43,266 nucleotides of DNA, from IMG/VR virus record IMGVR_UViG_3300042814_000014, positions 1 through 43,266 of that record; one strand, given 5' to 3'. Origin of the DNA: a virus (lineage: Duplodnaviria > Caudoviricetes). Every line of letters begins with the position of its first letter. Positions within the stretch are counted from its first letter, which is position 1. The notes under the pieces are model-generated. The model did no database searches and was not told the origin of the DNA. It saw only the letters and a program-made list of their open reading frames with translations. Made by a program: the position numbers and the translations under genes. Below are positions 3,615 to 27,400 of the stretch, piece after piece.

Positions 3615-3955
3615 TGGCTGCATTTACGACGGCACTGCTGATCGGCCTGGCGGCCAGCGGCGCGTTCACAGCCGGCTCGAAGCTCGGGGCGAAGAAGCAA
3701 GCGAACGCGGATCAGCAGGCCGCGGACGCGCAGGCGCAACAGGCCACGGGCCCGAACCCGACCGCGAACCAGGTGCCGACGCCACCGCCGTCCACGCCGG
3801 CAGCCGCTTCGAAAGCGTCAGCCTCGGCGACGACGGTCGCGCAGCGGCAACGGAAGCGCGCATCTGCCGGCAACACCATCCTGACCGGGCCGATCGCGTC
3901 GCCGGGTAAAGGGCCCTGGTCGGAAGCCAGGCCGAAGACACTGCTGGGCGCCTGA
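3614..3955 (+). CDS. Small virion/assembly protein preceding portal
   Basis: Hydrophobic N-terminus, QRQRKRA...TILTG and C-terminal KTLLG typical of pre-portal genes in T7/BPP-1-like podoviruses; TGATG coupling at both ends. Confidence 0.7.
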   Translation: MAAFTTALLIGLAASGAFTAGSKLGAKKQANADQQAADAQAQQATGPNPTANQVPTPPPSTPAAASKASASATTVAQRQRKRASAGNTILTGPIASPGKGPWSEARPKTLLGA

Positions 3956-5712
3956 TGGCGAATCCCGACGATTACCTCGACGAACGCGACAAGCGGACGC
4001 GCTACGAGACGCTCGCCGCGGCGCTCTGGACGGAGCGGGCATCCTTCGATTCTCATTGGCGCGAGCTGGGCGATTACTTCATGCCGCGGCGGACGCGGTT
4101 CTGGTCCGGCGATCGCAACCGCGGCGACAAGCGCAACCAGAACATCATCGACAGCACGGCGCGATTCTCCGCGCGCACGCTCTCGAGCGGGCTGCATTCG
4201 GGCCTGACGTCGCCAGCCCGGCCCTGGCTCAAGCTCACTACGCCGGACCAGTCGCTCGCGGAGCTGCCACACGTCAAGGTGTGGCTCGACCTAGTGACAA
4301 AGCGGATCCTGACGCTGTTCGCGACGACGAACCTCTACAACGTCCTGCCGCTGGTGTATCTCGATATGGGCATCTTCGGCACGGCCGCCATGTCGATGGT
4401 TAGTGACACGAAGGATCTCTTTCGCTGCTACTCCTACCCGATCGGCAGCTACGCGCTCGGCATGGATGAGCGCGGCCTGGTCGCGACGTTCGTGCGTCGT
4501 TACGAGATGACCGTCCGTCAGATCGTCAAACAATTCGGCGTGAAGGAAGACGGTCGAACGATCGACTGGTCGCGAATCTCGAGGACCGTCAAAGACTGCT
4601 GGGCGCGCGGCGACTACGAAACGGCGGTCGAAGTGACTTGGCTGGTCAAGCCGAATGACTACCAGGACCGCGGGCGCCTTGAGTCACGCTATGCGATGCC
4701 GTTCGTGTCCTGTTACTGGGAATGGTCCAACGACCATCAGACCTTTTTACGAGAGAGCGGATTCGAGACGTTCCCGATCATGGCTCCGCGCTGGGACATC
4801 ACCGGCGAGGACACCTACGGGACGGACTGCCCTGGCATGACGGCGCTGCCCGACAACAAGCAACTGCAGATCATGCAGAAGCGAAAAGGCCAGGCGATCG
4901 AGAAGCAGGTCAATCCCCCGTTGAGCGGGCCGTCGTCGCTGCGGACGCAGAAGACCAGCCTGCTGCCTGGCGATGTGACCTACGTCGACGTCCGGGAGGG
5001 CATGCAGGGCTTGCGGCCGATTCATGAGGTCGCGATCAACCTGGCGGACATGACGAACGACATGGCACAGGTGCAGTATCGGATTCAGCGGGCGTTCTAC
5101 GAAGACCTGTTCCTGATGCTCGCGCGCTCCGATGAGATGCGCGGCACGCAGCCGCCGACCGCTCGCGAGATCGACGAACGTCATGAGGAGAAGCTGCTGG
5201 CGCTCGGCCCGGTCCTCGAGCGCACGAACGACGAGCTGCTCGACCCGATCGTCGATCGGTCGTATCACCTAATGGAAGCGGCCGGGCTGTTCCCCCCGCC
5301 CCCGCAGGAGCTGCAGGGCGTTCGGCTCAAGGTCGAATACATCAGCATCCTGGCGCAAGCGCAGAAGCTGGTCGGCGTCGTCGGCCAGGACCGTCTGCTA
5401 CAAACAGGCGCCGTGCTCGCGCAGACGTTTGGGCCGGCCGTCGTCGACAAGTTCAATGTGAACCGCATCATCGACAACTACGGCGATATGCTGGGCACCG
5501 ACCCGCAGATCATCCGAAGCGACGAAGAAGCTGACGCCCTGGGCGCGCAGCGGGCCCGCCAGCAACAGATGCAGGCCGGCGCGGAAAACGCGGCGCTGGC
5601 CGCGAAGGCCGCGAAGGATGCCAGCCAGGCGCCGATGACCGGCGATAGCGTGCTCAACCAGGTCGTCGCCGGCGCCGCGCAGCCAGGCGCCGCGGTTCCG
5701 ACCGGAGCGTAG
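3955..5712 (+). CDS. Portal (head-to-tail connector, T7 gp8/BPP-1 type)
   Basis: GLTSPARPW, FGTA, PRW...YG...PG, TAREIDERHEEKLLALGPVLER, VEYIS.LAQAQ motifs. Confidence 0.95.
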   Translation: MANPDDYLDERDKRTRYETLAAALWTERASFDSHWRELGDYFMPRRTRFWSGDRNRGDKRNQNIIDSTARFSARTLSSGLHSGLTSPARPWLKLTTPDQSLAELPHVKVWLDLVTKRILTLFATTNLYNVLPLVYLDMGIFGTAAMSMVSDTKDLFRCYSYPIGSYALGMDERGLVATFVRRYEMTVRQIVKQFGVKEDGRTIDWSRISRTVKDCWARGDYETAVEVTWLVKPNDYQDRGRLESRYAMPFVSCYWEWSNDHQTFLRESGFETFPIMAPRWDITGEDTYGTDCPGMTALPDNKQLQIMQKRKGQAIEKQVNPPLSGPSSLRTQKTSLLPGDVTYVDVREGMQGLRPIHEVAINLADMTNDMAQVQYRIQRAFYEDLFLMLARSDEMRGTQPPTAREIDERHEEKLLALGPVLERTNDELLDPIVDRSYHLMEAAGLFPPPPQELQGVRLKVEYISILAQAQKLVGVVGQDRLLQTGAVLAQTFGPAVVDKFNVNRIIDNYGDMLGTDPQIIRSDEEADALGAQRARQQQMQAGAENAALAAKAAKDASQAPMTGDSVLNQVVAGAAQPGAAVPTGA

Positions 5713-5715
5713 GAC

Positions 5716-6105
5716 ATGGCTGAAGTGCGCGCTGCCGTCAAGAACGCCGCTGACCCGAAGCAAGTCGCACGGGCCGATCGCAAGACGCGCGACGCGCGCC
5801 TCGAGCATCTGGCGAACATCAAGGCCGTCATGAGCACGGTCTACGGGCGCGCGGTCATGTGGCAATGCCTGACGGACGCCGGCGTCTATCGGTCGGTCTG
5901 GGTGCCCAGCGCGGAGATCCACTATCGCGCAGGCCGGCAGGACTTCGGGCATGAGCTGATGGCGACGCTGCTCGAGGCGGACGAGGTCAGCTACGAACAG
6001 ATGGAGCGGGAAGCTCGAGCGCGAGCGAAGCGAGAGAACGACGCCACCGACGCGACGCACATCAAGAGCGCCGCGGACACCGTAGAGGAGCAGACGCAAT
6101 CATGA
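5716..6105 (+). CDS. Conserved post-portal protein (Bbp19-like)
   Basis: VMSTVYGRAVMWQCL..AGVY...GRQDFG..L pattern and position between portal and scaffold. Confidence 0.7.
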   Translation: MAEVRAAVKNAADPKQVARADRKTRDARLEHLANIKAVMSTVYGRAVMWQCLTDAGVYRSVWVPSAEIHYRAGRQDFGHELMATLLEADEVSYEQMEREARARAKRENDATDATHIKSAADTVEEQTQS

Positions 6106-6770
6106 CGCCAGAAGCAGCGACGCCAGCGGCACCGGCCACACCCCAAGCCGCAGCAGCGACCACCCCGGCAGCGCCAGCGGCAGGGGCCGCGGCACCGGCA
6201 GCGACACCGACGCCGGCAGCGGCGGCGGTGGTCCCAGCGGCGGCAGCGACGCCAGCAGCAGCAGGACCCGCGGGCACGGACGGAGCGGCAGCAGCCGCGA
6301 AGAAGGCCCCCGACACCTACGCGCTGACGATCCCAGACGTCGCCAAGGACATCCTCGATCCGGCCGACCTGACGCGCATCGAAAAAGTTGCGCGGGAGGG
6401 CAACCTCAGCAACGAGGAAGCGCAGAGCCTGGTCGAGACGCAGGCGACCATCATCGTTGAGGAGCTGGCGGCGCTCCGCAAGGTGACGGAAGCCGACAAG
6501 GACTACGGCGGCGACAAGCTGGTCGAGACGGAACGCCTCTCGAAGCTGGTCATCGACAAGGTCCGCCCACAAGGGCACGCGCGCCGGGAGGCATTCAACG
6601 CGATGCTCCGGCGTTCGGGCTACGGCAATCACATCGAGGTCGTTTCATTCCTGGCCGACCTCGGCAAACTGATGCGCGAAGATTCTCCGGCGATGGCGGC
6701 GAGCGGCGCCGGCGGGACGTCCAACGTGGATATCGCCGACAAGCTCTACGACAAAACGCCGAAGCAGTAG
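6102..6770 (+). CDS. Capsid scaffolding protein
   Basis: Ala/Pro low-complexity N-terminus, APDTY, GYGNH.EVV..L..LGK.M.ED, C-terminal ADKLY; directly upstream of MCP. Confidence 0.85.
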   Translation: MTPEAATPAAPATPQAAAATTPAAPAAGAAAPAATPTPAAAAVVPAAAATPAAAGPAGTDGAAAAAKKAPDTYALTIPDVAKDILDPADLTRIEKVAREGNLSNEEAQSLVETQATIIVEELAALRKVTEADKDYGGDKLVETERLSKLVIDKVRPQGHARREAFNAMLRRSGYGNHIEVVSFLADLGKLMREDSPAMAASGAGGTSNVDIADKLYDKTPKQ

Positions 6771-6791
6771 GCGCGCAGGGAGCGATAGATC

Positions 6792-7928
6792 ATGAAGTTT
6801 CTTCAGTGGTGTGTGTTCGTCGCGCTGGCGGTCCTGATTCTCGGGACTGATCTCAGCGCGCTGTCAGTCGCCGGCGCCGGGGCGCACGTCCCGGACTGGT
6901 TCAGTCACCTGGCGCTGCCGATCTGCTTCGGCATGGCGGCACTCGGGACCTCGAACCTGAACCTGCTGGATTGGGCGAAACGGCTCGACCCCGAAGGCAA
7001 GACGGCGGTCATCGTCGAGCTGCTCAACCAGAGCAATGAAGTGCTGATGGATATGACATGGCGCGAGGGCAATCTGCCGACCGGCCACCGGACGACCGTC
7101 CGAACCGGCCTGCCGACTGTCGCCTGGCGTCTGCTCAACCAGGGCATCACTCCCAGCAAGTCGACGACCGCGCAGATCGATGAACAGTGCGGCATGCTCG
7201 AGGCGTGGAGCGAGGTCGACAAGGACCTGGCGCTGCTCAACGGGAACCTGCCGTCCTTCCGTCTGTCCGAAGCGCGGGCGTTCATCGAGGCCATGAACCA
7301 GGAGATGACGCGCGTCCTGTTCTACGGCAACGGCGGCGTCAACCCGGAACAGTTCACGGGCCTGTCGGTCCGCTACGGCTCGAGCACGGCCGGCAACGGC
7401 GCGAACGTCATCAAGTGTGGCGGCGCCGGCGCGGACAACGCGAGCATCTGGTTGGTCTGTTGGGGCGACGAAACCATCAGCGGCATCTTCCCGAAGGGCT
7501 CGAAGGCCGGCCTGATTCACGATGACTTCGGCGAAGTGACCGCGGAGGTCACGGCCGGACTGCCGGGCTCGAGGATGCGCGTGTTCCAGGAGCGGTTCCA
7601 GTGGAAGGCCGGGATCGCGCTGAAGGACTGGCGCTACGTCGTTCGCCTCGCGAACATCGACATCAGCGACACCGACGCGGCGAACATCAAGACCATCATC
7701 ACGAACATGGAGACGGCGCTCGAGACGGTCCCGAACCGCCTGGGCAAGCCGGTCTTCTACATGAACCGCACGATGCGGCGCCTGCTCCGACGTGAGGCGC
7801 GCGAGTCGGTCGGTTCCGGCGGCGGCCTGACCTACGAGAACTTCGACGGCAAGCGGATCCTGGTGTTCGGCGACACCCCGGTCCGGCTGGTCGACCAGTT
7901 GATCAACAGCGAGGCGCTGGTCCCGTAG
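6792..7928 (+). CDS. Major capsid protein (BPP-1 Bbp17 / epsilon15 gp7 family) with hydrophobic N-terminal extension
   Basis: HRTTVRTGLP..AWR.LNQG, GMLEA.SEVDK.LA.LNGN...FRLSE.RAFIE, IFPKGSKAGL, DWRYVVR.ANID; family-like core starts at Met48 (6933). Confidence 0.95.
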   Translation: MKFLQWCVFVALAVLILGTDLSALSVAGAGAHVPDWFSHLALPICFGMAALGTSNLNLLDWAKRLDPEGKTAVIVELLNQSNEVLMDMTWREGNLPTGHRTTVRTGLPTVAWRLLNQGITPSKSTTAQIDEQCGMLEAWSEVDKDLALLNGNLPSFRLSEARAFIEAMNQEMTRVLFYGNGGVNPEQFTGLSVRYGSSTAGNGANVIKCGGAGADNASIWLVCWGDETISGIFPKGSKAGLIHDDFGEVTAEVTAGLPGSRMRVFQERFQWKAGIALKDWRYVVRLANIDISDTDAANIKTIITNMETALETVPNRLGKPVFYMNRTMRRLLRREARESVGSGGGLTYENFDGKRILVFGDTPVRLVDQLINSEALVP

Positions 7929-7997
7929 GGTTCTCGAGCGGTTCACTTTCGATCCGGTCCTGGTCGCTTCGGCGGCCGTTTGAAAGGGAGTTCAGCA

Positions 7998-8456
7998 ATG
8001 TATATCGACAGCCTTCTGAGGGTCTGCAGCTCGCAGGCTTTTACGGCCGTCGCCGTGTCCGCCAGCTCGATCGATCTCGGGCTGCCCGGCGGAGTCGGCA
8101 CGCCGACCAAGCGAGAGGTCGCCACGGGCGAACCGATCGGCTACGGGCTCAACGTCAACGTCGCCGCGTCGAGCACGACCGTCCTGGTCGAGCTGATTCA
8201 GGCGACGGATGCCGCGCTGACCGCGGGCATCATCGTCCATTCACAGCGCACGTTCCTGTCGGCGGACATGCCGCTGGGGGCCCTGATCTTCATGCCGCTG
8301 CCGCAGGGCGCGGAGGTCGCGGGCTGGCTGCAGTTCCAGGGCATCAGGGTCACGCCGGCCGGTGGCGCGGCGACCGTGACGTTGTCGGCCTGGCTGACGG
8401 CGCATTCGCTGTTCAGCGTCCTGGCGCGGAGCTACGCCAAGAACTACCTGACGTAG
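7998..8456 (+). CDS. Capsid cement/decoration protein (Bbp16-like)
   Basis: SD AAGGGAG; MYIDSLL...SQA.TA.A.S...IDLG start and ..T.SAWLT end; follows MCP. Confidence 0.75.
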   Translation: MYIDSLLRVCSSQAFTAVAVSASSIDLGLPGGVGTPTKREVATGEPIGYGLNVNVAASSTTVLVELIQATDAALTAGIIVHSQRTFLSADMPLGALIFMPLPQGAEVAGWLQFQGIRVTPAGGAATVTLSAWLTAHSLFSVLARSYAKNYLT

Positions 8457-8478
8457 TCGACGCGCTCGCTCGCATCTG

Positions 8479-8510
8479 GCCGGGCGTCCATTCGGGCGCC
8501 CGGCTCTTTT
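8479..8510 (+). terminator. Intrinsic terminator after capsid genes
   Basis: GCCGGGCGTCC-ATTC-GGGCGCCCGGC stem followed by TCTTTT. Confidence 0.75.
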
Positions 8511-8525
8511 CACATAGGAGCCATC

Positions 8526-8918
8526 ATGGTGAAGAAGGCAGCGAGAAAGAAATCAGTGGCCAAGCCGGCGAGCGCGCGATCCGCGGCGCCGGCGTCGCGC
8601 AAGGCCGTCGAGCCGCTCAAGGTCCGGGCCACGGGCGACGGCTACTACGAGGACGTCTACCGGCGTGCCGGCGACGTGTTCACCATTCCATCCGAACCGC
8701 GCAACCGGAAGACGGGCCTGCCGGCCCTGTTCGGCAAGTGGATGGAGTTCGTCGATCCGAAGACTCCGGACCGGCTGATGAGCCTGGGCAACGCGGCGCT
8801 CCGTCAGGAGAGTTCGCGCGTGCTCGAGGAGAAGGCCGCGCAGAAAGCCGCGGGCGGCGCCGTCGCGACGGGCGTCGACAACCCGGACGACGGCCTGAAC
8901 CCGCTCGGCGCCGAATAG
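8526..8918 (+). CDS. Hypothetical head-associated protein
   Basis: SD TAGGAG; basic N-terminus; KVRA...GYY...RR.GDVF...WME small beta domain often seen after capsid genes. Confidence 0.7.
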   Translation: MVKKAARKKSVAKPASARSAAPASRKAVEPLKVRATGDGYYEDVYRRAGDVFTIPSEPRNRKTGLPALFGKWMEFVDPKTPDRLMSLGNAALRQESSRVLEEKAAQKAAGGAVATGVDNPDDGLNPLGAE

Positions 8919-8934: not shown

Positions 8935-11900
8935 ATGGCTCACAAAGACGAATACCTGCCCTATACGATTCACCTGAACGACCTGAATTACTACAATTCC
9001 AGGTTTATCACGCCGGCGAATCCAGGGGCAGAGGTCGAGGCCGATCCGCCGAACGATAAGCTGTTCCGGTCCCCGCAGGACGCGGCGAACACTTACGGCG
9101 CCGATCTCGCTTTGTTGGGCGCATCCGTCTGGCCCGGCGGCGCGCTCCCGATCCAGTTCGACCCGCGCGATGCGTTCAGTTCGCCATCCGTGCGGTCGAC
9201 CTGGTTCGGCTCGAGCGCGCCATCGACCGAAGATCAATTCCCGCTCGATCAAGTGACCTTTGTCCGTAAGTCGGGCGGCTGGTTCGGGATCTCCTGGCTG
9301 TTCGGCACGAAGACCACGTATCACTGGGTCGGCCGATTCGAGTATTCGCCGAAGGTCGGCGCCGGCGTGCCTGGGACGGTCGTCGCGCTGCCAATGCCAC
9401 GGCGGCGCTGGATTGACGGCGGCGAGCTGCCGCTGCAGGGAGAGGGCGGCTCGAGCGCGACGGCGGACGTCTCTCGGCGCGCCTCGAGGAGCGCGCAGGG
9501 TTACGGCTACACGTTTGACAGCACGCTCGGGACGAAGCTCCACGATCACACGGAGAGCGGCGCGGCAGCGTCGCCGTCTGCCTGGGAACGGATCTATGTG
9601 CGCCTGGTCCGCTTCCCCGATAACCCGACGCGCATCTGGCGCGTGAGCAGCACGATCTCAGCCGCGGGACCGATGATCACGATCACGGCTGGCGGCGCGC
9701 TGACGCTCAATGATTTCGATGGCGTGAGCACGGCGACGCCGATCGGATCGATGGGCACGTTGCTGGTCAATGTCTGGTATAAGCTCGACCTGGTCTACAG
9801 CTTCGGCGCGCTGGGCGCGTCGCTCCCCTACTTCAAGGCGTATCTGAACGGGACGAAGGTCATCGACGTCGTCGGCGCCGCGCTGCCAGGCATGCAGGGC
9901 GGCACGAAAAATTGCTCACAGTCGATCATCGGGGGCGGCACGCCGGCCGGCGGCGCGAATAACGCGATCTGGCATGCGGACGACTGGATCGGTTCGGACG
10001 TCCCGGCAGTCGGTTACGAGATCGGCACGCAGAACGATTTCATCGTCGGTTCACACGTCGCCGTTCTGGGCGCGAATGCCTTCGCGAGTGACTCCGCCTC
10101 ATGGACGGGCGACTGGCGTCTGACGCGGCAGCGGCCAGTCACGACGGGCGTCGCGCAGCAGCTCACGTCAAGCGTCAGCGGCGCCATCCTCGGCGTCGTC
10201 GCCGATGCCGCGGTCGAGGTCGACGGGCAGAGTAATCAGCAGGGCGTCGTCGCGATCTGTGTGGGGCTGTTCAGCGACAAGGGCGGCGCCGGCGCGAACG
10301 GCGATCTCGGCTGGAAACTCCCCGGAGGCGCGAATGACTTCGCGGCCGTCGTCCAAACGGCAGGATCGTTCTCATGGACGAGTCGGCTGTATCGACCGGC
10401 GGGCCTGGTCACGCCGCTGACGCCGCTCGAGGGGCTCGAGCTAAAGCATCGCAAGGGAGCCAGCGTCGACCCGGCGAAGGTCCAGGCCCTGATGGCCGTC
10501 GCAGAAATCATCGGCGTCTTCGGCGACGAGGACGTCTACCCGCAGAGTGCGCTCGGCACGCCGATCGCGCAGCCGGCCGCCAGCGTGCAAACCCATTTCG
10601 GGATTCACAACGCGCCCTATCCTCATACCCCGTGGTGTAAGGACATGAGCACGGCGCCGCAGGGCATCGTGGTCGTCAAGACGGGCCAGTATGTCGGGAC
10701 CGGGACGTTTCTCGATCTGAAGTTCCGCGCGCCCGTGCATTTCCTGTGGATTCGACCGGAGTCGGGCGGCAGCGGCGGCCTGATCTGGTTCTCGAGCATG
10801 AACGCCGCGCATCGGCACGGGACGCGGGCCTACATGCCGGAGGGGCTGCTCGAGGTCCTGATCGATCCGACCTTCGTCCAGGGCGACGGCGTCGAGACAG
10901 ACATGACGCTGCCAGAGGCGCCGGACAACCTCGAGGAAGCCATTGCACTGTCGAATCAACTCGCGTTTGGATTCCACAAGAACGACGCCAGCTATATCGG
11001 CTGGGCGCCTTACCTTGACGATCCGGTCTACTTTTTCGGGCGCATGCTCGGCAGCGGGAGCGAAGGCGGGCCGGATGAAGCGGTCGCCGGCTTGTATGCC
11101 GTGCCGCCGACGCCCTGGCTCTCGACGCAGCAGCAGCAGACGATCATCCGGCTGGCCGGCAACGATGCCGACGTCAACGCGGCCGGCGTCAACTACAACT
11201 ATCTGGCGTTCTGCGATCCGTCGATGGCTTACAGCCAGGCCGGCGCGCTCGCGGCGTATGCCTTCAACGGCGACATCCTGAGCGATCTTGACGTCGAGTC
11301 CTTCGTGCCGGAAGCCGTGTTGCTACAGCAGGAGCAGGACGGCGCCAGCTCCGCGCAGACCTTCATGGTGAAGGGCAGCGGCAGCGCCGCGAACGCCATC
11401 AGCGTCCCGACACTCGCGGAGATCGCCAGCGGCCTGGCCATGACGGGCGGCGTGCTGACCTATAAAAACGGGCTGCTCCTGGCCGGCGCGAATCAACACG
11501 CTTACATCGCATTCCGGCGCGCGGCCTACGGCCAGAGCACAGCGACCAATCGGCCGATCGTCCTGGCGTCCTATACCGGAGACGGCGGCGGGACGAAGAT
11601 CATCCCGCTCACGCCGACCGGCAAGCGGCCGATGTGGGTCCTGATCGTTGGCCACAACGGGACGACGTTCATGCGCGATCCGTTTCACACGGGCACCAAC
11701 AGCCTGGCGTTCCCCAGCACGAACAACGCAGCGACCGGCATCACGGCCGGAGCGGTCGATTCGATCACGGTGGGGTCGGCCGCCAACACGAACGGCATCA
11801 TCTTCGATGTGATTGCCTTCATGGGCTGCAGCGCCGGCGTGGGAAATAACGGCTGGGGCGAGATCGGCGAATGTATTCCGGACGATCCCGAATCGCCGCC

Positions 11901-13596
11901 AGAACCGCCCTGGGATCCCCCGCCGGAGCCGCCGGTCGAACCGCCTGAACCCCCGTTCGATCCCGGTCCGGCGGCCGATGACTTCGGCAACCAGTGCATC
12001 GCCGCGTCGACGCGCATCATTAACCAGGCGCTGAGCCGCATCGGCGTCTCGAAGCAGATCGGGAACATCGTCACCGAACAGAGCAACGAGGCGAACGTCG
12101 CCAGGCTGCACTACAGCGACGACGTCGACCAGACGCTCCGCGATTTCCCGTGGCCGTTCGCGACGCACTACGCGACGCTGGCGCGTATCGCGGGCCCGTC
12201 ACCCGTCGCGTCGCCGGACTGGCTCTACAGCTATCGCCGGCCGTCTGACTGTGTGTTCGAGCGACGCATCTGCCTGCCGCGGCAGCTCGCGGTCGACCCA
12301 ACGCCCCCGCCGTTCCAGCTCTCAAACGATCCGGACGTCATGAGCATCGTCGTCGCGCTCAATCTGACGGGCAACAGTGCGGCGAATCCGACCGTCTTCA
12401 CCGTCGCCGTCGCGCACGGGTTTGTCACGGGCCAGGTCGTCACGATCGCCGGCGTGGTCGGTTCGGTCCCGGATGTGAACGGGGCCGCGCAGGTCACGGT
12501 TATCGATCCGACGCATTTCTCGATCCCGGTCACGGTCAGCAACCCCGGCGTCGGCGGCACGGTCACGCCGCAGGCGGTTCTCCTGGCGGCCGGCGGCGGG
12601 CTGATTCTCACCAACCAGGCGAACGCCGTGCTGGAATACACGCACCGGCCCGTCTGTGCGGCCGGGCGCGGCGATCCGTTGTTCCGGGACGCCTTGACCT
12701 GGCGGCACGCGGCGAGCCTGGCGTCGTCGCTCTCGAGGATGACCGACGTCCAAGCCAATTGCCTGAAGATGTATCAGGCGTGCATCGACCTGGCGCATGC
12801 CGTGTTCCGTCCGGGCAATCCAGGCCGGCCGGCGACAACGGCGTCGACGTTGGACACGACGGCCGCGCAGCTCGCGGCGAATACGGCGGTCATCAATCGC
12901 GGCCTGCTCCGCATCGGCGCGCAGACCGTTACGGCGATCGAGTCCGACCAGTCGCGCGAGGCGACGGCCGTCCGGGCCATCTTCGAGGACGAGCTGCTCG
13001 CGACGCTTCGCGATCACTCCTGGGCGTTCGCGACGGCCTACGCCGACCTGGCGCTGGTCGGCGGCACGGTCAGCGTGCCGGTGAATGCCGACTGGCAATA
13101 CAGCTATCGGCTGCCGACCGACTACGCGAAGGCTCGCCGGCTGGTCAACGAGGTCACGCGGCGCGCGTTCGATGAGAACCCCGTGCCGTTCCGCATCGGC
13201 GGCGACGCGGCCGGCGGCCTGCTGTTCACCAACCAGGAAGCGACGACCGACGAGCCGGTCACGCTCGAATACACGGCACGGTTCACGGGCCTGGTATCCA
13301 GATCGGACGCGCTGTTCCGCGATGCCTTCGCCTGGCGCCTGGCTGCCGCGCTGGCGCCAGCCATCGCGAACGTCGACCCGGAGCGCGTCGAGCAGCACGG
13401 CCGCGGCGCAGAGGACCCGCGCGAGGTCCAGGGCAAGACGCCGCGAGCCGATCGTCGGATGCAGCTCCGCATGCAGACCGCGCAATACGCGCTCCGTATG
13501 TATGCCGCGGTCATCCGGATTGCGGAGGCCGACAACAGCCAGGAGCAACAGCAGGAGAAGCCTGGCGACGCGGAATGGACGAACGGGCGTAACTGA
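8935..13596 (+). CDS. 1553-aa fusion: about 1000-aa beta-rich spike-like region plus two tandem head-tail adaptor (tail tubular protein A / T7 gp11-like) domains
   Basis: Two copies of IN.AL.RIG...S.EA...LRD..W.FAT...DW.YSYR.P.D...LEYT...LFRDA..WR.AA.LA at about 12000-12800 and 12880-13596; ConA-like and SYTG.G-type fibre motifs upstream; immediately precedes the nozzle. Confidence 0.85.
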   Translation: MAHKDEYLPYTIHLNDLNYYNSRFITPANPGAEVEADPPNDKLFRSPQDAANTYGADLALLGASVWPGGALPIQFDPRDAFSSPSVRSTWFGSSAPSTEDQFPLDQVTFVRKSGGWFGISWLFGTKTTYHWVGRFEYSPKVGAGVPGTVVALPMPRRRWIDGGELPLQGEGGSSATADVSRRASRSAQGYGYTFDSTLGTKLHDHTESGAAASPSAWERIYVRLVRFPDNPTRIWRVSSTISAAGPMITITAGGALTLNDFDGVSTATPIGSMGTLLVNVWYKLDLVYSFGALGASLPYFKAYLNGTKVIDVVGAALPGMQGGTKNCSQSIIGGGTPAGGANNAIWHADDWIGSDVPAVGYEIGTQNDFIVGSHVAVLGANAFASDSASWTGDWRLTRQRPVTTGVAQQLTSSVSGAILGVVADAAVEVDGQSNQQGVVAICVGLFSDKGGAGANGDLGWKLPGGANDFAAVVQTAGSFSWTSRLYRPAGLVTPLTPLEGLELKHRKGASVDPAKVQALMAVAEIIGVFGDEDVYPQSALGTPIAQPAASVQTHFGIHNAPYPHTPWCKDMSTAPQGIVVVKTGQYVGTGTFLDLKFRAPVHFLWIRPESGGSGGLIWFSSMNAAHRHGTRAYMPEGLLEVLIDPTFVQGDGVETDMTLPEAPDNLEEAIALSNQLAFGFHKNDASYIGWAPYLDDPVYFFGRMLGSGSEGGPDEAVAGLYAVPPTPWLSTQQQQTIIRLAGNDADVNAAGVNYNYLAFCDPSMAYSQAGALAAYAFNGDILSDLDVESFVPEAVLLQQEQDGASSAQTFMVKGSGSAANAISVPTLAEIASGLAMTGGVLTYKNGLLLAGANQHAYIAFRRAAYGQSTATNRPIVLASYTGDGGGTKIIPLTPTGKRPMWVLIVGHNGTTFMRDPFHTGTNSLAFPSTNNAATGITAGAVDSITVGSAANTNGIIFDVIAFMGCSAGVGNNGWGEIGECIPDDPESPPEPPWDPPPEPPVEPPEPPFDPGPAADDFGNQCIAASTRIINQALSRIGVSKQIGNIVTEQSNEANVARLHYSDDVDQTLRDFPWPFATHYATLARIAGPSPVASPDWLYSYRRPSDCVFERRICLPRQLAVDPTPPPFQLSNDPDVMSIVVALNLTGNSAANPTVFTVAVAHGFVTGQVVTIAGVVGSVPDVNGAAQVTVIDPTHFSIPVTVSNPGVGGTVTPQAVLLAAGGGLILTNQANAVLEYTHRPVCAAGRGDPLFRDALTWRHAASLASSLSRMTDVQANCLKMYQACIDLAHAVFRPGNPGRPATTASTLDTTAAQLAANTAVINRGLLRIGAQTVTAIESDQSREATAVRAIFEDELLATLRDHSWAFATAYADLALVGGTVSVPVNADWQYSYRLPTDYAKARRLVNEVTRRAFDENPVPFRIGGDAAGGLLFTNQEATTDEPVTLEYTARFTGLVSRSDALFRDAFAWRLAAALAPAIANVDPERVEQHGRGAEDPREVQGKTPRADRRMQLRMQTAQYALRMYAAVIRIAEADNSQEQQQEKPGDAEWTNGRN

Positions 13597-15842: not shown

Positions 15843-16178
15843 GTGGCGAAACTGGTCAGCATGAAAATCTCGGCCGACGAGCGCGCGAAGCGCATGCAGC
15901 CGACCATCGCGGAGGGCGACGCGCCGGCGTATCCCTACGGGCTCAGCGTCTCACTGGACAAGGACGCGCTCGAGAAGCTCGGCCTGAGCGACGATCTGCC
16001 AGACGTCGACGAGGACTACCTGCTGATCGCGAAGGTGACTGTGACCGGCGTCAACAGCGCGAAGGGCGGCAGTGGCTACAGCAGCCAGCGCGTCGAGCTG
16101 CAGATTACGGACCTCTGCCTCGAGGAGAGCGGCAGCGCGAAGGATGCCGCGGCGGAACTTTACGGCGGGGACACCTAA
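15843..16178 (+). CDS. Capsid staple-like protein (epsilon15 gp10-like)
   Basis: YPYGL.VSL....LEKLGL...LP.V and VELQITD motifs; SD AGGAGG with GTG start. Confidence 0.75.
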   Translation: MAKLVSMKISADERAKRMQPTIAEGDAPAYPYGLSVSLDKDALEKLGLSDDLPDVDEDYLLIAKVTVTGVNSAKGGSGYSSQRVELQITDLCLEESGSAKDAAAELYGGDT

Positions 16179-18474: not shown

Positions 18475-21400
18475 ATGGCGGACATCCTCGAGGAGCAGCA
18501 GGGCATCGATCCCGCGGCGCCGGCCGCGGCCGGAACGTCGGCGCCGTCGCCCTACGATGAGACGCTGGCCATTCAGGACAGCCAGCGGCAGCAGAAGCTC
18601 CGCACGTCGCTGGTCCAAGCCGACAGCCAGACGCCGGACCGGGCGGCTGACGTGCAGCGCCTGGCCACGCAGACCGGCATCCCGTCCCAGATCATCGACC
18701 GCGATTACGACACCTACGCGAAGCGCGCGAAGTTTGTCAGCACGCCGTTCAACCAGATCGTCAAAGAGTCGCCGGCGCTGGCCACCTGGGCGAGCGAACC
18801 GCAACACGCGGCCGTCGCGCATGACGACATGGAGCAGCTCGGCGCGCTCGAGTGGATTCTCAAGACGCCGTCTCGCGCGGTCAGCCAGCAGCTCAACGCG
18901 CAGGGCTACGGCGCGCTCCGCACTAAATCGCTGTTCGGCGAGCTGACGCAGGAGGAGCACGACCAGCTCGAGAGCTACCGCGTTCACATGAACGACGGCG
19001 GCGAGCTGGGCGCTGGAAATTCCTGGTTCCGTGGCGCGGTCACGGGCAGCCTGAAGCTCCTGACGCAGCTCGCGAGCACGGTCCCGGTCTACGGCCTGGC
19101 CGGCGCGGCCGGCGGTGCGATCATCGGTGGAGCGGGCGGGACGTTAGTGGAGCCAGGCGGCGGGACCATCGTCGGCGCCGTCGCCGGCGCGCGGACCGGC
19201 TTCGCCGCGGGAAACCTCTACGGCAACGCTAAGATGGCCTTTCAGCTCGAGGCCGGCGGCGCGTATGACGAATACCTGGGGCTCCGCGACGAGTTCGGGC
19301 ATCCGATGGATCCGCAGGCCGCGAAGGTCGCCGCGCTGGCGACGGGCGCGATCAATGCCGGGCTGATGACCATCGGCGGCAGTGTCGTTCGGGCCGGGCT
19401 CGGCAAGGGCGCGGAGAAGCTGCTGGCCGGCGCGTTCACGCGGGACGCCATCACGGCCGCGCTCCGGCAGCCGACCGTCCGCGCCGCGCTCACCAACGCC
19501 CTGACCGAATACGGGAAGACGCTCGCCGAAGGCGACGCCATCGTCGTCGCGATGCGCGGCGTCAACATCCTGGCCGGCGAGATCGCGCGCTCGCAATCGA
19601 AGACACAGATGGCGCCCGGCCAGGTCGAGCAGGGCAACATCGATCTGTTCAAGCAGCCGGAAGTTCACAACGCGGACGGCTCGACGTCGACGGTCGACAC
19701 GGTCGGCGTCAACATCAACGGCAAGGAATACGTCTTGCCGACCGTCACGCCGGACGGCCGCCACCTGAAGACGGCCGACGAAGCGATCGCAGAGTTCCAA
19801 CGGACCGGCAAACACCTGGGCGCGTTCGAGACGCCCGACGCCGGCACGGCATTCGCGCAGCAGGTTCACGAAGATTTCGCCGCCGGCAAATACAAAAAGC
19901 CGGACGTCGGACAAGAGCTGCTCCACGCGGCAGCGTCCGGGCTGCAGACGTTCGCGATCGTCGGCGCACTGGGGCCCGCGATGGGCCTGGCGCACGACGC
20001 GCAACGCGCCATCCGGGCAGAACAGAACGCGAACGTGTTCAAGGCACTGGGCGAGGGCGCGAAAAACTCGAAGACTATCGCGCGCATGCCGGAGGCCGCG
20101 CAGCGGTTCCTCGAGACGGCCACCAAGGACGGCCCGGTCGAAACGATCTACGCGCCGGTCGAGACGTGGAACCAATACTGGCAATCCAAAGGCATCGACC
20201 CGGCACAGGTCGCCAGCGATGTCATCGGCTCACGAGACGCCTACATTCACGCCTCACAGCAGGGCGGCGACCTGGCCATCCCAACCGCGCGCTACGCGAC
20301 GAAGCTGGCGGCCACGGAGCATCATGCGTTTTTCGTCAACGAGCTGAGGCTCGGCCCGGACGAGATGAATGCGCGCGAGGGCAAGGCGTTCGCGGACCAG
20401 CTCGCCGCCAGCCAGGCCGCCGGCCAGGTTCAGGCGCCGGCCGAATCGCCGGTCCGTGGCGCCGTGCTCGAGCAGCTCACGGCTGCCGGCATCCCCACGG
20501 ATACCGCCCAACACTACGCCGACCTCTACGAATCGACCGTCTCCAGCTTGGCCGAACGGGCGGGCATCGACCCAACCGCCCTATATGAGCGGTATGGCCT
20601 GAAGGTCACACGGCCCGACCTCGAGGCGGCCGGCGCGGAGGGCCCGGCGAAGGCCCCAGCGGCGGCCGTGGCGGCCACGCCAGGCGAGACGGCGGAGCTG
20701 GCCGGCCTGCTGGGGCCTGGCGGATTCGCGGGCCCTGAGCGGCGCCAGACGGCCGGCGCGGCGCCTGGGGGCGTCGAGCGGCGTCAGGACCAGCCGCTCG
20801 ACCTGACCGACGTCGGCGCTGCCGCGGCCAGGATGCGGGCGGAGAACCCCAACATCGACAAGGAGGCGGCCAATCTCCGGGCCAGGGCTGCCGCGTCAAG
20901 GGCGCCGGCACCGCCTCGGACGCCCAAAGTAGGCGAATCAGCGCCCGGAGAGGTAGGATTTCACAATGCCGGACGACCCACAGAACCAGGGCCCGCCGAA
21001 GCTCGGCCAGGCTCCGCCTCTCAAGAAGGGCCGGGAGCTGGCGGTCGTCCTCGAGAACAGCCGCAAGCTGGTCAAAGCGGGATGGAGCAAGGAGCAGGCG
21101 CTGGCCACGTCGCTGAACCTGGCCGGCTACCGTCCCTCATCGACGCCGGTAGTCCCAGCGACATCTTCCAGCGAAGTAGTTCACTAGACGCCAGCAAGGC
21201 GCGCCTGACGCCGGAAGTCACGCGCGAGCTGCAGCGGATCGTCGACGAGCTGGAAACCTTCCCCCACACCGCCCGAACATGGACCTGGCTCACAGAGGAG
21301 CATGGGCTCCGCGGGAACGCGGCCGGCGGCCACGCGAACATCGTCGAGGGGTCGCCGGTGGCCGACGTCTATCACGACATCCTGAGCGTCTCGCCGCTGA

Positions 21401-24400
21401 ACCGGAAGGCCAAGAGCTTCATGCGCTCGAAGGCCCGCGGCACGACGATGCAGGTCCTGAACGCCGCGCGGCAGCTCCTGGCCACGGGCGAGGTCCACAA
21501 CAATCTGGCGGAGGGCGCGCTCCGCGTCGCCGAACATCGCAACGCCGGAGACTATGAGTTCCTGACCGGGCCGATGTTGCCGCCAACCTGGGGCGAGGAG
21601 CTGCCGGCGCACGTCGAGGCGCAGATGCGCCAGGCGCTCGAGGACTCGACCGCGCCGGGCGTCGACCTGCTGAACCCGGACAGCATCGGCAGTGAGGCGG
21701 AGATCCTCAACCCGCAGGGCCCGGTCGATACCAGCTTCAACATCAACGAGTTCAATCAATCGCTGTTCGACGAGGTCAAGCCGGTCGATCCGATCGTCGA
21801 CGAGCTGGCCACCGGCGAGCTGCAGCCGCGGCTCCCTGGCGCCGGCGATGTGCGCGGACAAGAGAACCCGACGCCGGCCGTCGCAGAGGCGCCGTTCGCC
21901 CTGACGCCGGAGATTCTGAAGCCACGAGCGGGCAAGCAGACGGAGCTGTTCCAGAGCGTCTATCACGGCACGCCGCACCGCTTCGAGGAGTTCAGTCTGC
22001 AGGCCATCGGCAGCGGCGAAGGCTACCAGGCATACGGCTGGGGGCTCTACTTCGCCGGCAACCGGGAGGTCGCTGAGTTCTATCGCGAGAAGCTGGCCGG
22101 TCCGGAGACGATGAAGCAGGCCGTCTATGACGGCACGCCGCTCTTTGACCGGGAGATTGGGCTCTACTATCACGCGCTCGACGAAAACGGATTCCCGTCG
22201 ACGAAGGCGCAGGATCCGCAGCTCGCCCGCGGCATCATGGAGGTCCACACCCGATCGCACTGGGAACCGCCCGGCAAGGACTGGGTTCCCCGCATGAAGG
22301 ACGCGCTCGAGCGCAGCGTCATCAACGTCGAGGCGCGTCTCGCCGAAGGCGGCACGTTCAGCGGAGACGTCAATCGCGATCGCTACGACCTGCAGAATTA
22401 CAAGGACGCGATCCGCGCGCTCGAGGTCTACGGCGACAAGCTCGAGATCCTGCCGCCGGAGAAGCCGGGCCATCTGCTCACGGTCGACGTCCCGGACGAC
22501 CAGCACTACCTCGATTACGACCGCCTGATCTCGCAGCAGTCGCCCGAAGTGCAGGCGAAGCTGCAAGCGATGGGCATCGACCTGGGCGAGCCGACGCACA
22601 TCCCGACCGCGGCCGAAGGGCTCGAAATATTCAACACGTCCGACCACGTTCGAGATATGTGGATGGAGGACATCGGGATCCGGGAGTCGCTGAAGGAGGG
22701 CCTGCACTACGCCCGCGAAGGCGACGATCGGCTGTTCGGACTCTGGTATGAGAAAAATATCAACTTCATGCGCGAGGAGGGCCGGACCGAAGATACCGGC
22801 TCCCAGCTCTACGACAGCCTGCAGCGTGATTGGCAGGCAAAGAACCGCCACAGCTCGATCGCCGAATCGGCCAAAGCCGCCAGCCTGACGCTCGCGTCGG
22901 CCGGCATCGCGGGGATCAAATACCTCGACGGCAACAGCCGGCGGAAGCTCGAGGGCTCGACGAATTACGTGCTGTTCGACCCGCGGCTGGCGAAGATCAC
23001 CGAATACAACCAGTCGCTGCCAGAGCTGACAGAGGACAACGTCCGGGCCTGGACGAAAGAGGTCAAGCAGAAGGCCGGCGCCGACCTGCAAGGCTTCAGC
23101 ATCGAGCTGCAGCCGAACGGCGATCTATTCCTCGAGTCGCTGATTGTCGACCGCGGCGCACAGCGGACCGGCATCGGCACGGCGGCCATGCAGGAGCTGA
23201 CGCGGTTCGCGGATCTGAACGGGCGCCGCATCACCCTGACGCCCGCGCACCGCAACGAGATCGGCCAGGGCGAACCGACATCGACCGGCCGGCTGGTCAA
23301 GTTCTACAAGCGATTCGGATTCGTCGAGAACGCCGGCCGCAACCGGAACATGGATCTGACGGCGGGCATGTATCGCGAGCCGACGCTCCCCGGCCCGCCG
23401 GACCCGACGGCGCCGGACGGCGGCAGTCTGATCGTGCAGCACAACCTCACGGCCGCGAACCTACTGCACGCGGAGAAGATGGGCGGCCTGGCCGTCCCGT
23501 CCCTGGCCGTCGCGAAGGCGCATGACAGCCTGGTCAACTTCGGCGAGATCACGCTGCTGGGCCCGAAGGATCTGGCCGACCCGAAGCAGGGCGCGAAGGT
23601 GTTCGGCGCCGACGTCTACAGTCCGCGGTATCCGACCGTCCATTACAAAATTCCCGCGGCCGGAGAGAAGCGGCTCGCGGCACTGTTTCGAGAGCAGAAG
23701 GCCGTCAGCGGCCAGAGCTACATCGATCTCGATTCGCTCCAAAAAGAGGGCGCGAAATATCTCGAGCAGTCGCCGGCCGTCCTGGCCGCGTTCCTGGCCA
23801 GCCAGGACATCACGGTCAAGCCGACGCTGAACAAAAACGGCAGCGTCGACCAGTTCGACACCCGCTACGAAATGCAGAAGGTTGTCGACGAGGGCGGCCA
23901 CGGACCGGCGTTCAAAGCCTACGCGGCGGACCTGTTCAAATCGCTCGACGCGACGGAGCGGATTTATAAAGGGTTCACAAACGCCGGCAACTACCGCTAT
24001 GAACCGCACACGCTCGAGCGCGTCGTCAAGACGCTGAAGAAGGATCTGCGCGGCGGCGAGTCGCAAGCGAACATCTACGGGGTTGGTCAGCTCCGATCGC
24101 AGTTTGCGCCGAAGTTCCGCAGTCTCGAGGGCGTCCGTAAGGCCGCCGATCGGATCGTGTCGGACGCGGACTTCGAAGTCGTCAAGGCGGAGGTCGAGGC
24201 GGACCTATTCACCATCAGCGACGCGCTCAAGAGCAGCTATACCCACGGCGACGCGAATCGGTTCGGATTCGTCGACACCGTCATGGCCGTCATGGCGGAC
24301 GCGCCGAAGCGGGGGCTCGAGAAGGCGCTGAAAGACTACGGGTTCGAGGACGTTCCGGCGGAGACGAAGAAGGCGATCGGCGACTACATCAACAAACTCC

Positions 24401-27400
24401 GCGATCTGCCAACTGAATACTTCGAGGTCAAACATCCTCGAGCGATGGCCGTCGACGAGTTCAGGGCCGCGGCGGTCCCAGAGGATATTAACCCGGAGGC
24501 ACGAGCCGCGCTCGAGCGCCGCGGGCTCGAGGTTGCCACGTATAGGCCGGGCGACCTGGCGGACCGGAAACGGGTCGTGCAGGAGCTGGCCACCAACAAC
24601 GATCTGTTGTTCCAGGACCAGGGCGGCACGAAGCGGGGATCGATTCGGTTCGGCCCTGATCGTCAATTCGAGATCCGGCTGCTCGAGCAGGCCGACCTAT
24701 CGACCTTCCTGCATGAGTCCGGGCATTTCTTCCTCGAGATCCTGGGCGACCTCAACGACACGCTGGGCCAGGTCGACCCGGAGAAGCTGACGCCGCAGCA
24801 GAAGCGGCTCCTGAGCGACTACGGCGGCACGCTGCAGGCGCTGGGCGTCGAGGGCCGGGATCAGATCGGCACGGCGCATCATGAGCAGTTCGCGAAGATG
24901 TTCGAGGCGTATCTCATGGAGGGCCGGGCGCCGACGCTCGAGCTACAGGGCGCGTTCTCTCGGTTCCGGGCCTGGCTGGTCAGCATCTATCGCTCGCTCT
25001 CGAATCTGAACGTCAAGCTGACGCCGGAGGTCCGCGGCGTGCTCGACCGCCTGGTCGCCAGCGATCGCGCGATTCAGGACGCCGAAGCGCGCCGCGGCGT
25101 TCCGCAGATGTTCCTGACGCCAGAACAGGCCGGCATGTCGCCGGCGGAGTTTGCGCTCTACCGCAACACGATCGAAGACGCCTCGAGGACGGCGCGCGAG
25201 GAGCTGGACAAGAAGCTGCTGGGAGAGGTCCAGCGGGAACAAACGCGCGTCTGGAAAGAGCAGCGCGCCGATGTGCAGCAGCGCGTCGAAGCGGACGTCT
25301 ACACCCGGCCGGAGTATCGGGCCCTGGCGGCCATTCAGCGCGGCACGCATCCGAACGGCGAGCCGTTGGTCGAGGGGCTCGAGACGCCGCCGATGCGTCT
25401 CTCGCGGGCGACACTGGTTGAGCGGTTCGGCCCGGAGCGCCTGAAGCGGCTGCCGCCATTTGTCTACTCGCGCGAGGGCGGGCTCGACCCGGAGACGGTC
25501 GCCGGCTTGTTCGGCTACTCGAGCGGCGACGAGTTACTGACCGCGCTCGAGAAGGCTGGGCCGATGCGCGCGGTCATCGAAGCGGAAACCTCGAGGACGA
25601 TGATCGCGGAACACGGCAGCCTGCTGCTCGACGGCACGCTGCACGAAGCCGCGCAGGGCGCGATCGCGAATGAGGACCGGGAGTTCGTCATCCGGAAGGA
25701 GCTGAAGGCCCTGGCACAGCTCCGCCGGACCGTGACGCCGTTCCAGCAATTCGAGCGTGCTCAGGGCCAGGATGCGCTGGCGGCCGAACAGGCAGAGCGG
25801 GCGTATGAACGCCGGTGGATGGACGCGGAGCACAAGCTCAACGTCGCGATGGCAGAGGGCCGGAAGCAGGTCGAGATCGACGCGCTGCAGGACGAAGTCA
25901 GCAACCTGAAGCGGAAGGCCCGCGGCGGCGCTGCGCAGATCAATGCGGCGATCCCGCCGGCGGCCGTGCTGAAGGAGAACGCAGAGGCGCGGATCGCCGG
26001 CCTGCCGATCCGGGGCATCAAGGCCGAAGCGTTTTGGTCTGCCTCGAGGCGCGCGGCGCAGCAGGCGATCGACCGTGCGGCGCGTCAGGACTTCGACGGC
26101 GCCATCATCGCGAAGCAGCAAGAGCTGATCAATCTGGCGCTCTACCGGGCCGCGGAGCGCGTCCAGGAAGACCTCGAGGACCGCGTCCGCTACGCGCAGG
26201 GCCTGAGTCAGACGCCGGCGCGCAAGCGGCTGGGGCTCGCCGGCGCGAACTACCTCGAACAGATCGACGGCATCCTCGATCGGTTCGAGTTTGCGCGTAT
26301 CAGCCAGAAGCAGCTCGACAAGCGGGCCAACATTCGGGCGTTCGCCGATGGGCTTGAGAGCCAGGGCTACACCGTCGAGATTCCGGAGTCGGTCCTCGAC
26401 GAAGCTCGGCGGAAGAATTACCAGGAGCTGACGGTCGAGGAGTTCATGGGCGTCACGGACGCCCTGAAGCAGATCGAACATCTGGCCACGCTGAAGAATC
26501 GGCTCCTGAAAGCGGCCGACGCGCGAGAGTTCGCCGTCGTCCGGGACGCCGTCGTCTCAGTGATCCGAGAGAAGAATCCGGCGAACCCGCTCCCGCTCGA
26601 GTTCCGACCCGGCGACGAGCGCATGCGGCACGTCAGCGACTGGTTCGCGTCGCATCGCAAGATGAGCGACATCGCGCAGCAGCTCGACGGCTACGCGGAC
26701 GGCGGGCCCGTCTGGGAGGCGTTCATCCGGCCGATCAACGAGGCGGCCGACGTGCAGGCCGCGCGGTTTGCGGACAGCGGCGGCAAGCTGCAGGACATCC
26801 TCGAGCGCGCCTACCCAAAGGGCGAGCTGGGCACGCTCCACGAAAAGCTGCACATTCCCGCGATCGGCGGATCACTCTCGAAAGAGGCGCGCCTGGCCGT
26901 CGCGCTCAATTGGGGCAACGAGACGAGTCGGCAGCGGCTGACCTCAGACCCGGTCCGGCGCTGGAACCAGCAGCAGGTCGAGGCGATCCTCGAGACGCTC
27001 GACCGTCGCGATTGGGCTTTCGTGCAAGACGTGTGGAAATTTGTCGATAGCTTTTGGCCGGAGATTGCAGCGAAGCAGGAGCGCGTCGTCGGCGTGCCGC
27101 CGGAGAAGGTCGAGGGCATCCCCGTCCGGACGAAGTTTGGTGAGATCCAGGGCGCCTACTATCCGCTCAAATACGACAGCCGGCTCTCGCAGCGCGCCGC
27201 GCAGAACGAGGCGGCCAGCCAGGCGAAGCTCGGCACGCAGGCGGCGTATGTGCGCTCGACGACGAAGCGCGGCCATACGGAGACGCGGCTGCAGAACGTC
27301 AAGCTGCCGGTCCGCCTTGAGCTGGGCGTCATGTTCGAGCACGTCGAGCAGGTCGTTCACGATCTCACGCATCACGAGATGCTGATCGACACGACGCGCC

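Follow-up and report, generated by a model that had tools for sequence, protein, structure and literature searches.

Comparative evidence for a translated, optional hydrophobic leader on the major capsid protein of BPP-1/epsilon15-like podoviruses

The major capsid protein of an uncultured tailed phage carries a hydrophobic N-terminal leader of 47 residues ahead of its HK97-fold core. Comparative evidence argues that this leader is real, translated, widespread and optional, and we consider it a probable cleavable pro-peptide. In our preferred reading, to which we give an even chance, a membrane hairpin, trimmed after Ala23 on the outer side, would keep the capsid protein bound to the inner membrane until it is cut after Gly47 by a host protease. 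HK97-fold capsid proteins of tailed phages are generally regarded as soluble and cytoplasmic. The stretch of DNA analysed here, called the window throughout, is a virus record of 43,266 bases that is 94% complete.

Results

Head genes of the window

Judged by its head genes, the window is an uncultured short-tailed podovirus of the BPP-1/epsilon15 type. Genes for the small terminase, the portal, a Bbp19-like protein, the scaffold-position protein, the major capsid protein and a Bbp16-like cement protein follow one another (Table 1), and BPP-1 has the identical head order, its succession of portal, bbp19, bbp18, capsid and bbp16 cement recurring in the window. The capsid core matched PF20911 with an E-value of 1e-121 and 406 bits (curated cut-off 27) and NF045672 with 329 bits (curated cut-off 75). 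By profile the protein belongs to the epsilon15 gp7 / BPP-1 Bbp17 family, but it does not have the mature length from its start, as it carries 47 extra residues: the capsid frame is open from 6792 to 7928 and starts 47 codons 5' of the family's usual start. Alignments of the BPP-1, epsilon15 and 8cjz capsid structures to the window protein begin at residue 48-49, which bears out the initial annotation, where capsids of this type had been said to begin at the equivalent of Met48.

Table 1. Positions of the head genes and of the segments of the capsid leader in the window
Feature	Position	Strand	Basis
Portal (head-tail connector)	3955..5712	+	PF12236
Scaffold-position gene, BPP-1 bbp18-like, no leader	6102..6770	+	Profile matches, homologue comparison
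Shine-Dalgarno-like GGGAG, 9 nt 5' of ATG 6792	6778..6782	+	Sequence; same placement in 59/64 intact leader loci
Major capsid gene, 378 aa including leader	6792..7928	+	Open frame
Leader helix 1: Met-Lys tip and strong hydrophobic core, aa 1-17	6792..6842	+	Hydropathy, AlphaFold helix 2-18
G-T-D-L-S-A, predicted signal peptidase I site after Ala23	6843..6860	+	Ala23 near-invariant; cleavage predicted
Loop of polar, variable sequence (aa 24-35), predicted on the periplasmic side	6861..6896	+	Charge counts
Second, weaker hydrophobic stretch, aa 36-47, ending C-F-G	6897..6932	+	Hydropathy, motif counts, low-confidence AlphaFold helix
HK97-fold major capsid core, epsilon15 gp7 / BPP-1 Bbp17 family	6933..7928	+	PF20911, phrog_212, NF045672, PDB 3j4u, 8cjz, 3j40
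Bbp16-like cement protein, no leader in the window	7998..8456	+	Profile match

Elsewhere in the window, a 261-aa gene without annotation (703-1488) sits between the terminase genes. A 1553-aa protein 3' of the cement gene (8935-13596) is almost without family match, and a tail-tube-like segment seems to be repeated in its C-terminal part. A second small coat-like gene (15843-16178; PF21628, Gp10-like) lies distant from the capsid gene, similar genes being present in 15 of 53 loci, and 18475-28605 encodes a 3376-aa polyvalent protein with LPD22, ART-PolyVal, GNAT and PBECR5 matches, at the place of ejected internal virion proteins. A scan of 6600-8600 for promoters and terminators found none. 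Among the relatives, Limnohabitans phage DC33 (L266, PQ492659.1) is classed in the Inoviridae despite its 39 kb and its gp7-type capsid protein.

Initiation of translation at the leader ATG

The scaffold gene ends with the stop codon TAG at 6768-6770, and GGGAG and ATG 6792 follow. The initial annotation had rested the upstream start on this Shine-Dalgarno (SD)-like motif and on the lack of one before Met48 (6933); the motif is indeed present with a spacing of nine bases, and the SD scan of the window found no match of at least four bases before Met48. The possibility that the extension is open but untranslated, the protein starting at Met48, draws on the presence of that Met in the window and on a predicted hairpin that spans the capsid gene's SD and ATG (6765-6830, z -2.7) in this genome alone. 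The hairpin is, however, unconserved, a conserved RNA element at the capsid start having been rejected with a mean z of 0.14 over 57 loci. Furthermore, 111 of 117 homologous leaders do not have a Met at this position. Among 118 distinct leaders, drawn both from loci and from protein sets, the junction glycine is followed by Ala in 78, Val in 28, Met in 6, Thr in 3, and Leu and Phe in one each; most leaders cannot start internally because only 6 of 117 have Met there. An ATG near the core start was found in 3 of 59 leader loci as opposed to 79 of 80 leaderless loci.

The signatures of initiation lie likewise at the upstream ATG. In GC-rich loci, third-position G+C in core codons 2-6 was 0.92 with a leader (57 loci) versus 0.44 without (35 loci), the control codons 21-60 gave 0.86 in either class, and the leader's own codons 2-6 gave 0.51; mRNA folding gave -16.3 kcal/mol around the ATG of leaders, -15.4 around that of leaderless genes and -26.7 where leader and core meet within leader genes, all these loci being related by descent and not independent samples. 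The G+C of the leader by codon position, 0.62/0.45/0.84, is coding-like. By these comparisons the SD, the A/T-rich first codons and the weak mRNA folding all shift to the leader ATG. Contig joints skipping the leader were not seen, a result that carries no weight either way. Translation from 6792, as first proposed, is thus supported by the SD, by the codon and folding signatures and by the 111 of 117 leaders without a junction Met, and a start at 6933 or stops within the leaders of close relatives, which would have spoken against it, do not hold for the leader-bearing kin. We regard the untranslated extension as largely refuted for the family by sequence comparison, and for the window itself as extremely improbable.

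Anatomy of the leader

The leaders are about 48 residues long (range 30-58), and residues 1-47 of the window protein agree with the sequence given in the initial annotation. Lys or Arg occurs within the first five residues of 112 of 117, and hydropathy of helix 1 over 15 residues is 2.64 in the window with a median of 2.72 and at least 1.6 in 116 of 117, compared with a maximum of 1.05 in the capsid core. A basic n-region followed by a hydrophobic h-region, as in Sec/signal peptidase I substrates, is therefore present, and so are small residues at -3 and -1 of the first site, where Ala23 is near-invariant and absent in few leaders (e.g. L086). D-x-x-A ends at residues 20-26 in 78 of 117 leaders, with mostly L, V or I at -3; a looser -3/-1 pattern fits 116 of 117 but is easily satisfied by composition. 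The charged n-region, hydrophobic h-region and Sec-like L-S-A site claimed initially are in this way supported for the first half of the leader. As a description of the whole, the signal-peptide reading is incomplete, since a second hydrophobic stretch at residues 36-47 ends in a near-invariant glycine.

The loop between the two sites is net acidic (54 Lys/Arg versus 184 Asp/Glu in 2922 loop residues) and its length, counted between the Ala and Gly sites, ranges over about 20-36 residues. Hydropathy of the second stretch is 1.69 in the window and at least 1.6 in 73 of 117 leaders, and three loci (L172, L207, L210) have just 4-6 uncharged residues ahead of the junction glycine. This glycine occurs in 117 of 118 leaders when either of two adjacent positions is accepted. 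The residue before it is F, L, V or I in 115 of 117 (leader background 0.41), the one before that is V or A in 93 of 117 (background 0.30), and G or P stands at -6 from the cut point in 67 of 117 (background 0.10). Gly47 is hence the predicted last residue of the leader. After the glycine, the consensus runs uncharged for about 11 residues, then Asp and then Lys-Arg, with no Lys or Arg for about 14 residues; the basic residues directly after the second helix that a procoat-like hairpin would have are not found. AlphaFold, with an alignment of 72 rows, placed helices at 2-18 (pLDDT 73-79), 21-28 and 36-50 (pLDDT about 51-56) and was confident only for the first. The leaders of L207, L210, L172, P0020 and P0081 are unlike the main type, with no D-x-x-A and a short second stretch, which suggests independent origins converging on a junction that is either hydrophobic-Gly or hydrophobic-Ala.

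Leaders on two head proteins of one phage

A phage contig in a Burkholderiaceae bin (L086:5974-7691) carries hydrophobic, Gly-ending leaders on the Bbp16-like cement protein as well as on the major capsid protein. That of the capsid protein has I-G-I-L-G at its end and is followed by Ala, and the cement leader ends L-I-V-G and is followed by Ala-Ile-Leu-Asp where leaderless cement proteins read Met-Ile-Leu-Asp. The two differ in sequence, yet both run from hydrophobic residues into Gly and then into an Ala that replaces the usual Met. Because the Ala of the cement protein stands in for the start Met of the leaderless proteins, we place the leader boundary after the glycine. Both leaders have a short loop and lack an A-x-A site, which argues that hairpin and glycine form the common core and the signal-peptidase site does not. 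Among the downstream genes inspected, a cement leader was seen in this contig only, and no leader was seen on a scaffold protein.

These observations bear on a reading in which no second cut takes place, the 24 residues after Ala23 staying on the N-arm, where they would tether procapsids to the membrane until lysis or provide a hydrophobic virion coat near the cement dimers. The leader on this cement protein would be in keeping with it, as would the absence of a protease fitting the glycine site (see below) and BPP-1's capsid protein, which is described as untruncated, with an N-arm that contacts the auxiliary protein (PMC5701804). A near-invariant glycine exactly at the boundary where leaderless proteins start, in two proteins, is nevertheless better explained by a cut, and a loop whose length ranges over about 20-36 residues also stands against retention. 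We consider this alternative quite unlikely.

Distribution and exchange of the leader

The best 120 of 7,997 capsid homologues were mostly of two sizes, about 331 and 372-388 residues. We compared 145 distinct loci from viral, metagenome and genome collections, from which loci near contig ends and duplicates had been removed and which include the window's own sequence and some close strains: an intact hydrophobic leader in frame is present in 64, 80 are leaderless and one (L192) is frameshifted. The alignment of homologues suggested in the initial annotation thus did turn up such extensions. Fifty-nine of the 64 show the ATG and SD pattern and five have no SD match, the class of 59 being itself defined by SD and ATG and its count therefore circular. 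In the leaderless class, one row of which (L215) is mis-anchored, a stop occurs at most 37 codons upstream, 79 loci have ATG at the core start and 74 have an SD. The frameshifted locus has a single frameshift in the leader near 8700 and no downstream Met, and is probably an assembly error. Among phage relatives in GenBank, 59 of the 60 listed from 103 matches align only from residue 45-58; one listed match that aligns from residue 27 is annotated as leaderless.

Leaderless genes lack the entire leader and retain no remnant ORF, and the spacing from scaffold stop to ATG is similar in both classes. Two loci (L116, L184) are leaderless although up to 87% identical to the window in the capsid core, and leaderless sisters reach 87-89% core identity. 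In 53 loci, head-gene content was equal with and without leader and no leader-linked gene was found within 10 kb. Because close leaderless relatives have the same head genes, the leader cannot be an obligatory assembly step, which qualifies the initial idea of an unusual assembly route. To judge from these genes, the leader is an optional module on an ordinary scaffold-driven route.

For a tree we used 59 capsid cores, verified on DNA and sharing at least 66% identity with the window; 41 of them have a leader and 18 do not. Leader state changes 12 times on this tree (9-12 across 200 bootstrap trees; shuffled mean 15.6, minimum 10), counts that do not separate gain from loss, so that by this phylogeny the leader has been switched on or off at least nine times. 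A single clade of leaderless capsids was rejected (p-AU 5e-50). Compared with P0012, the window is 79% identical in the leader and just 76% in the core, whereas the six cores closest to it (85-89%) carry leaders that are merely 26-43% identical. Because leader and core identities disagree in this manner, recombination appears to have swapped the leader, exchanging it between lineages. It is weakly conserved, with a mean pairwise identity of 0.33 versus 0.21 after shuffling. In the closest informative pairs synonymous changes exceed replacements (6:2 and 10:4), in distant pairs replacements are as many as synonymous changes, and constraint is weaker than on the core.

Searches for the leader elsewhere

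A leader profile run against all ORFs of the 145 loci and the window retrieved capsids only, profile searches being weak for such divergent sequence and having missed the L086 cement leader among the ORFs. A word-indexed search for a stand-alone leader gave one capsid fragment of 83 aa and eight longer proteins, each of them PF20911, and a scan of 1.84 billion representatives gave three matches, two capsid fragments and one repeat protein that matched helix 1 only. Against 81 genomes of the order to which the host hint below points, the best E-value was 0.002; by appearance, nine of 11 host-order loci inspected were ordinary N-terminal signal peptides and two were internal membrane segments. 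A stand-alone leader gene or a host protein with the same leader was rejected, none having been found in the profile and word searches. The ESM Atlas gave no usable match for residues 1-60, Foldseek against viral models returned capsids only and nothing on the leader, and 26 leaders gave no inovirus coat match in Pfam at E up to 1. Our literature search, at the level of abstracts and openly accessible text, found no description of a membrane-type leader on a tailed-phage capsid.

Candidate proteases and host

Profile searches found no peptidase among the window ORFs. Models for rhomboid, S26, A24, CPBP, Prp and S78 peptidases, with positive controls, matched none of five leader-bearing virus records that are 94-100% complete, and PF04586, the one prohead protease family searched for individually and the type expected with a delta-domain like that of HK97, was found in none of the five. 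The bbp18-like gene is labelled 'protease' in PHROGs (PHROG 458) and, for BPP-1, in GenBank. Among 52 homologues, no position with Ser, Cys, His or Lys reaches 85% conservation, and the gene occurs with and without leader. From its sequence, the product looks like a scaffold and the 'protease' label may be wrong.

Prp was found in none of 41 genomes of the hinted host order and none of the five phage records, with a positive control in 3 of 14. The short L27-like motif, Phe|Ala cut and additional leader on the scaffold that mark Prp substrates are not seen here, where the junction is Phe-Gly and leaders measure 30-58 aa. This result weighs on a further alternative, a soluble pro-peptide or passenger peptide cut at Gly47 so early that the capsid body is not, or not yet, stably tethered, in the manner of Prp in phage 80alpha. 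Its benefit would be help in folding or the released peptide, for example a hydrophobic peptide made in capsid-level amounts that acts on the host membrane or Sec machinery. The junction motif is sharp also in leaders with a second stretch not long enough to cross a membrane, and cleavage of the 80alpha capsid leader is described as dispensable (PMC5744158), as this leader is over evolution; both speak for it. Apart from the missing Prp, such a route has against it that helix 1, being strongly signal-like, would be expected to be taken up by SRP/Sec beforehand, and that no stand-alone gene for the leader turned up in the searches of loci and protein sets. We judge it unlikely, if the least so of the alternatives.

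Rhomboid proteases are described as preferring a small P1, a large hydrophobic P4 and a hydrophobic P2' residue, in a motif near the N-terminal (outer) end of a membrane helix or upstream of the helix (PMC2941825). The junction has Gly at P1 in 117, A, T or V at P2' in 117 and L, V, I or F at P4 in 67 of 117 (background 0.41). The geometry does not fit, for the glycine lies at the C-terminal end of the second stretch. Signal peptidase I follows the -3/-1 rule and cuts at the outer face of the membrane. No known protease fits cleanly: the glycine site suits both the -3/-1 rule of signal peptidase and P1/P2' of rhomboids, which are outer-face enzymes, and a cut at a glycine on the cytoplasmic face matches the geometry of none of the bacterial enzymes compared.

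If the second stretch did not stop transfer and signal peptidase I itself cut after Gly47, a capsid protein would reach the periplasm, as a decoy or for extracytoplasmic assembly. The junction agrees with the -3/-1 rule (V, A, S, C, T or I in 105 of 117, Gly in 117 of 117, G or P at -6 in 67 of 117), and an HK97-fold encapsulin with a signal peptide is reported from anammox bacteria (PMC11664910). True export is very improbable all the same, as neither scaffold nor portal carries a signal, DNA is packaged in the cytoplasm, an internal start that could supply a cytoplasmic pool is missing from most leader genes, and leaderless sisters are 87-89% identical in the core.

Genome-bin labels as to the host conflict, naming Conexibacter, Burkholderiaceae and Steroidobacteraceae for leader forms and Vicinamibacterales, Steroidobacteraceae and others for leaderless forms. 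In the order of the Vicinamibacterales bin, 18 of 101 genomes have chromosomal genes, frequently more than one in a genome, that match the N-terminal domain of the 703-1488 gene, and the gene was found in 0 of 101 genomes of the Conexibacter bin's order; we take this as a hint to a host in Vicinamibacterales. A prophage search of the hinted order found the capsid in 1 of 401 genomes, the seed genome itself.

Discussion

The evidence presented here covers the translation of an optional leader, and the membrane and cleavage steps are what we infer beyond it. In the preferred hairpin model, every capsid copy is made with the leader, as the sequence comparison shows. Helix 1 would act as a Sec/SRP signal, the acidic loop would be exported, and signal peptidase I would trim after Ala23 in most members. 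The second hydrophobic stretch would then halt transfer and leave the folded capsid domain tethered inside, which is the weakest step. With no signal on scaffold or portal, and with internal starts missing from most leader genes, the cytoplasm must be where the capsid body ends up. A host protease cutting after the glycine would free the N-terminus Ala-Ala-Leu-Gly, in the window preceded by Met, that leaderless relatives obtain directly.

Against this model stand the poor fit of the proteases compared, the weak conservation of the leader, the balance of replacements and synonymous changes in distant pairs and the frameshift in L192. Features of the sequence also speak against the hairpin. The second stretch is by its hydropathy a marginal membrane helix, often too short or too polar, and it is followed not by basic residues but first by Asp, contrary to the positive-inside rule that marks the cytoplasmic side of membrane helices.

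By the comparisons above, the leader is evolutionarily dispensable and appears to be exchanged as a module, and its benefit is for this reason probably conditional. It may keep subunits apart until scaffold and portal are ready, concentrate them at the membrane, or shield the most abundant phage protein from cytoplasmic defence sensors. We put forward tentatively, and with more doubt than confidence, a procoat-like pathway in which each capsid subunit is an inner-membrane protein cut by a host protease at a glycine on the cytoplasmic face, the leader serving as a mobile on/off cassette traded by recombination to time assembly or to hide the capsid from sensors.

A membrane-targeted capsid precursor, if true, adds a membrane step to head assembly and points to a host protease activity without an assigned enzyme. 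The leader is common in uncultured soil and sediment podoviruses, and the cultured relatives that were checked did not show it. Since alleles with and without leader occur naturally at up to 89% core identity, the proposal can be tested without culturing the phage. For annotation, leader-bearing capsids are easily mis-started or labelled secreted proteins.

The closest known systems are BPP-1 Bbp17 (PDB 3j4u) and epsilon15 gp7 (PDB 3j40), which belong to the same family and share the gene order bbp19-bbp18-capsid-bbp16, core identity to BPP-1 being 47%. Their capsids begin at the equivalent of Met48, whereas the window protein carries the 47-aa leader, and BPP-1's capsid protein is, as noted, untruncated. 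In the Staphylococcus phage 80alpha, Prp is described as cleaving leaders of 13-14 residues with an L27 motif from capsid and scaffold proteins at Phe|Ala (PMC5744158). In common with the 80alpha capsid leader, as that source presents it, are an N-terminal extension of an HK97-fold protein, a hydrophobic-then-small junction, dispensability and a host protease, here putative. The present leader differs in its about 48 residues, its membrane-type helix, its absence from the scaffold and in that Prp was not found in 41 genomes of the hinted order.

The procoat pVIII of the filamentous phages (f1/M13) has the layout of a membrane hairpin. In those phages the coat itself consists of the membrane helix and virions leave by extrusion, whereas the window leader precedes an HK97 domain of 331 residues and would need removal. 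Membrane-associated assembly is also known from jumbo phages. Heads of tailed phages are reported to start at the inner membrane in phage T4 (PMC3185693), where the anchor, in the account given there, is a connector-associated membrane factor as opposed to a leader on each capsid subunit. The cytochrome-fused encapsulin of anammox bacteria is an HK97-fold shell protein with an N-terminal signal peptide (PMC11664910); it forms a compartment of the cell for which transfer into the anammoxosome is presumed, packages no DNA, and in the portion of that source drawn on here is described with no second hydrophobic stretch. By analogy, the leader would work like a procoat or like a host-cleaved capsid propeptide and belongs to neither family.
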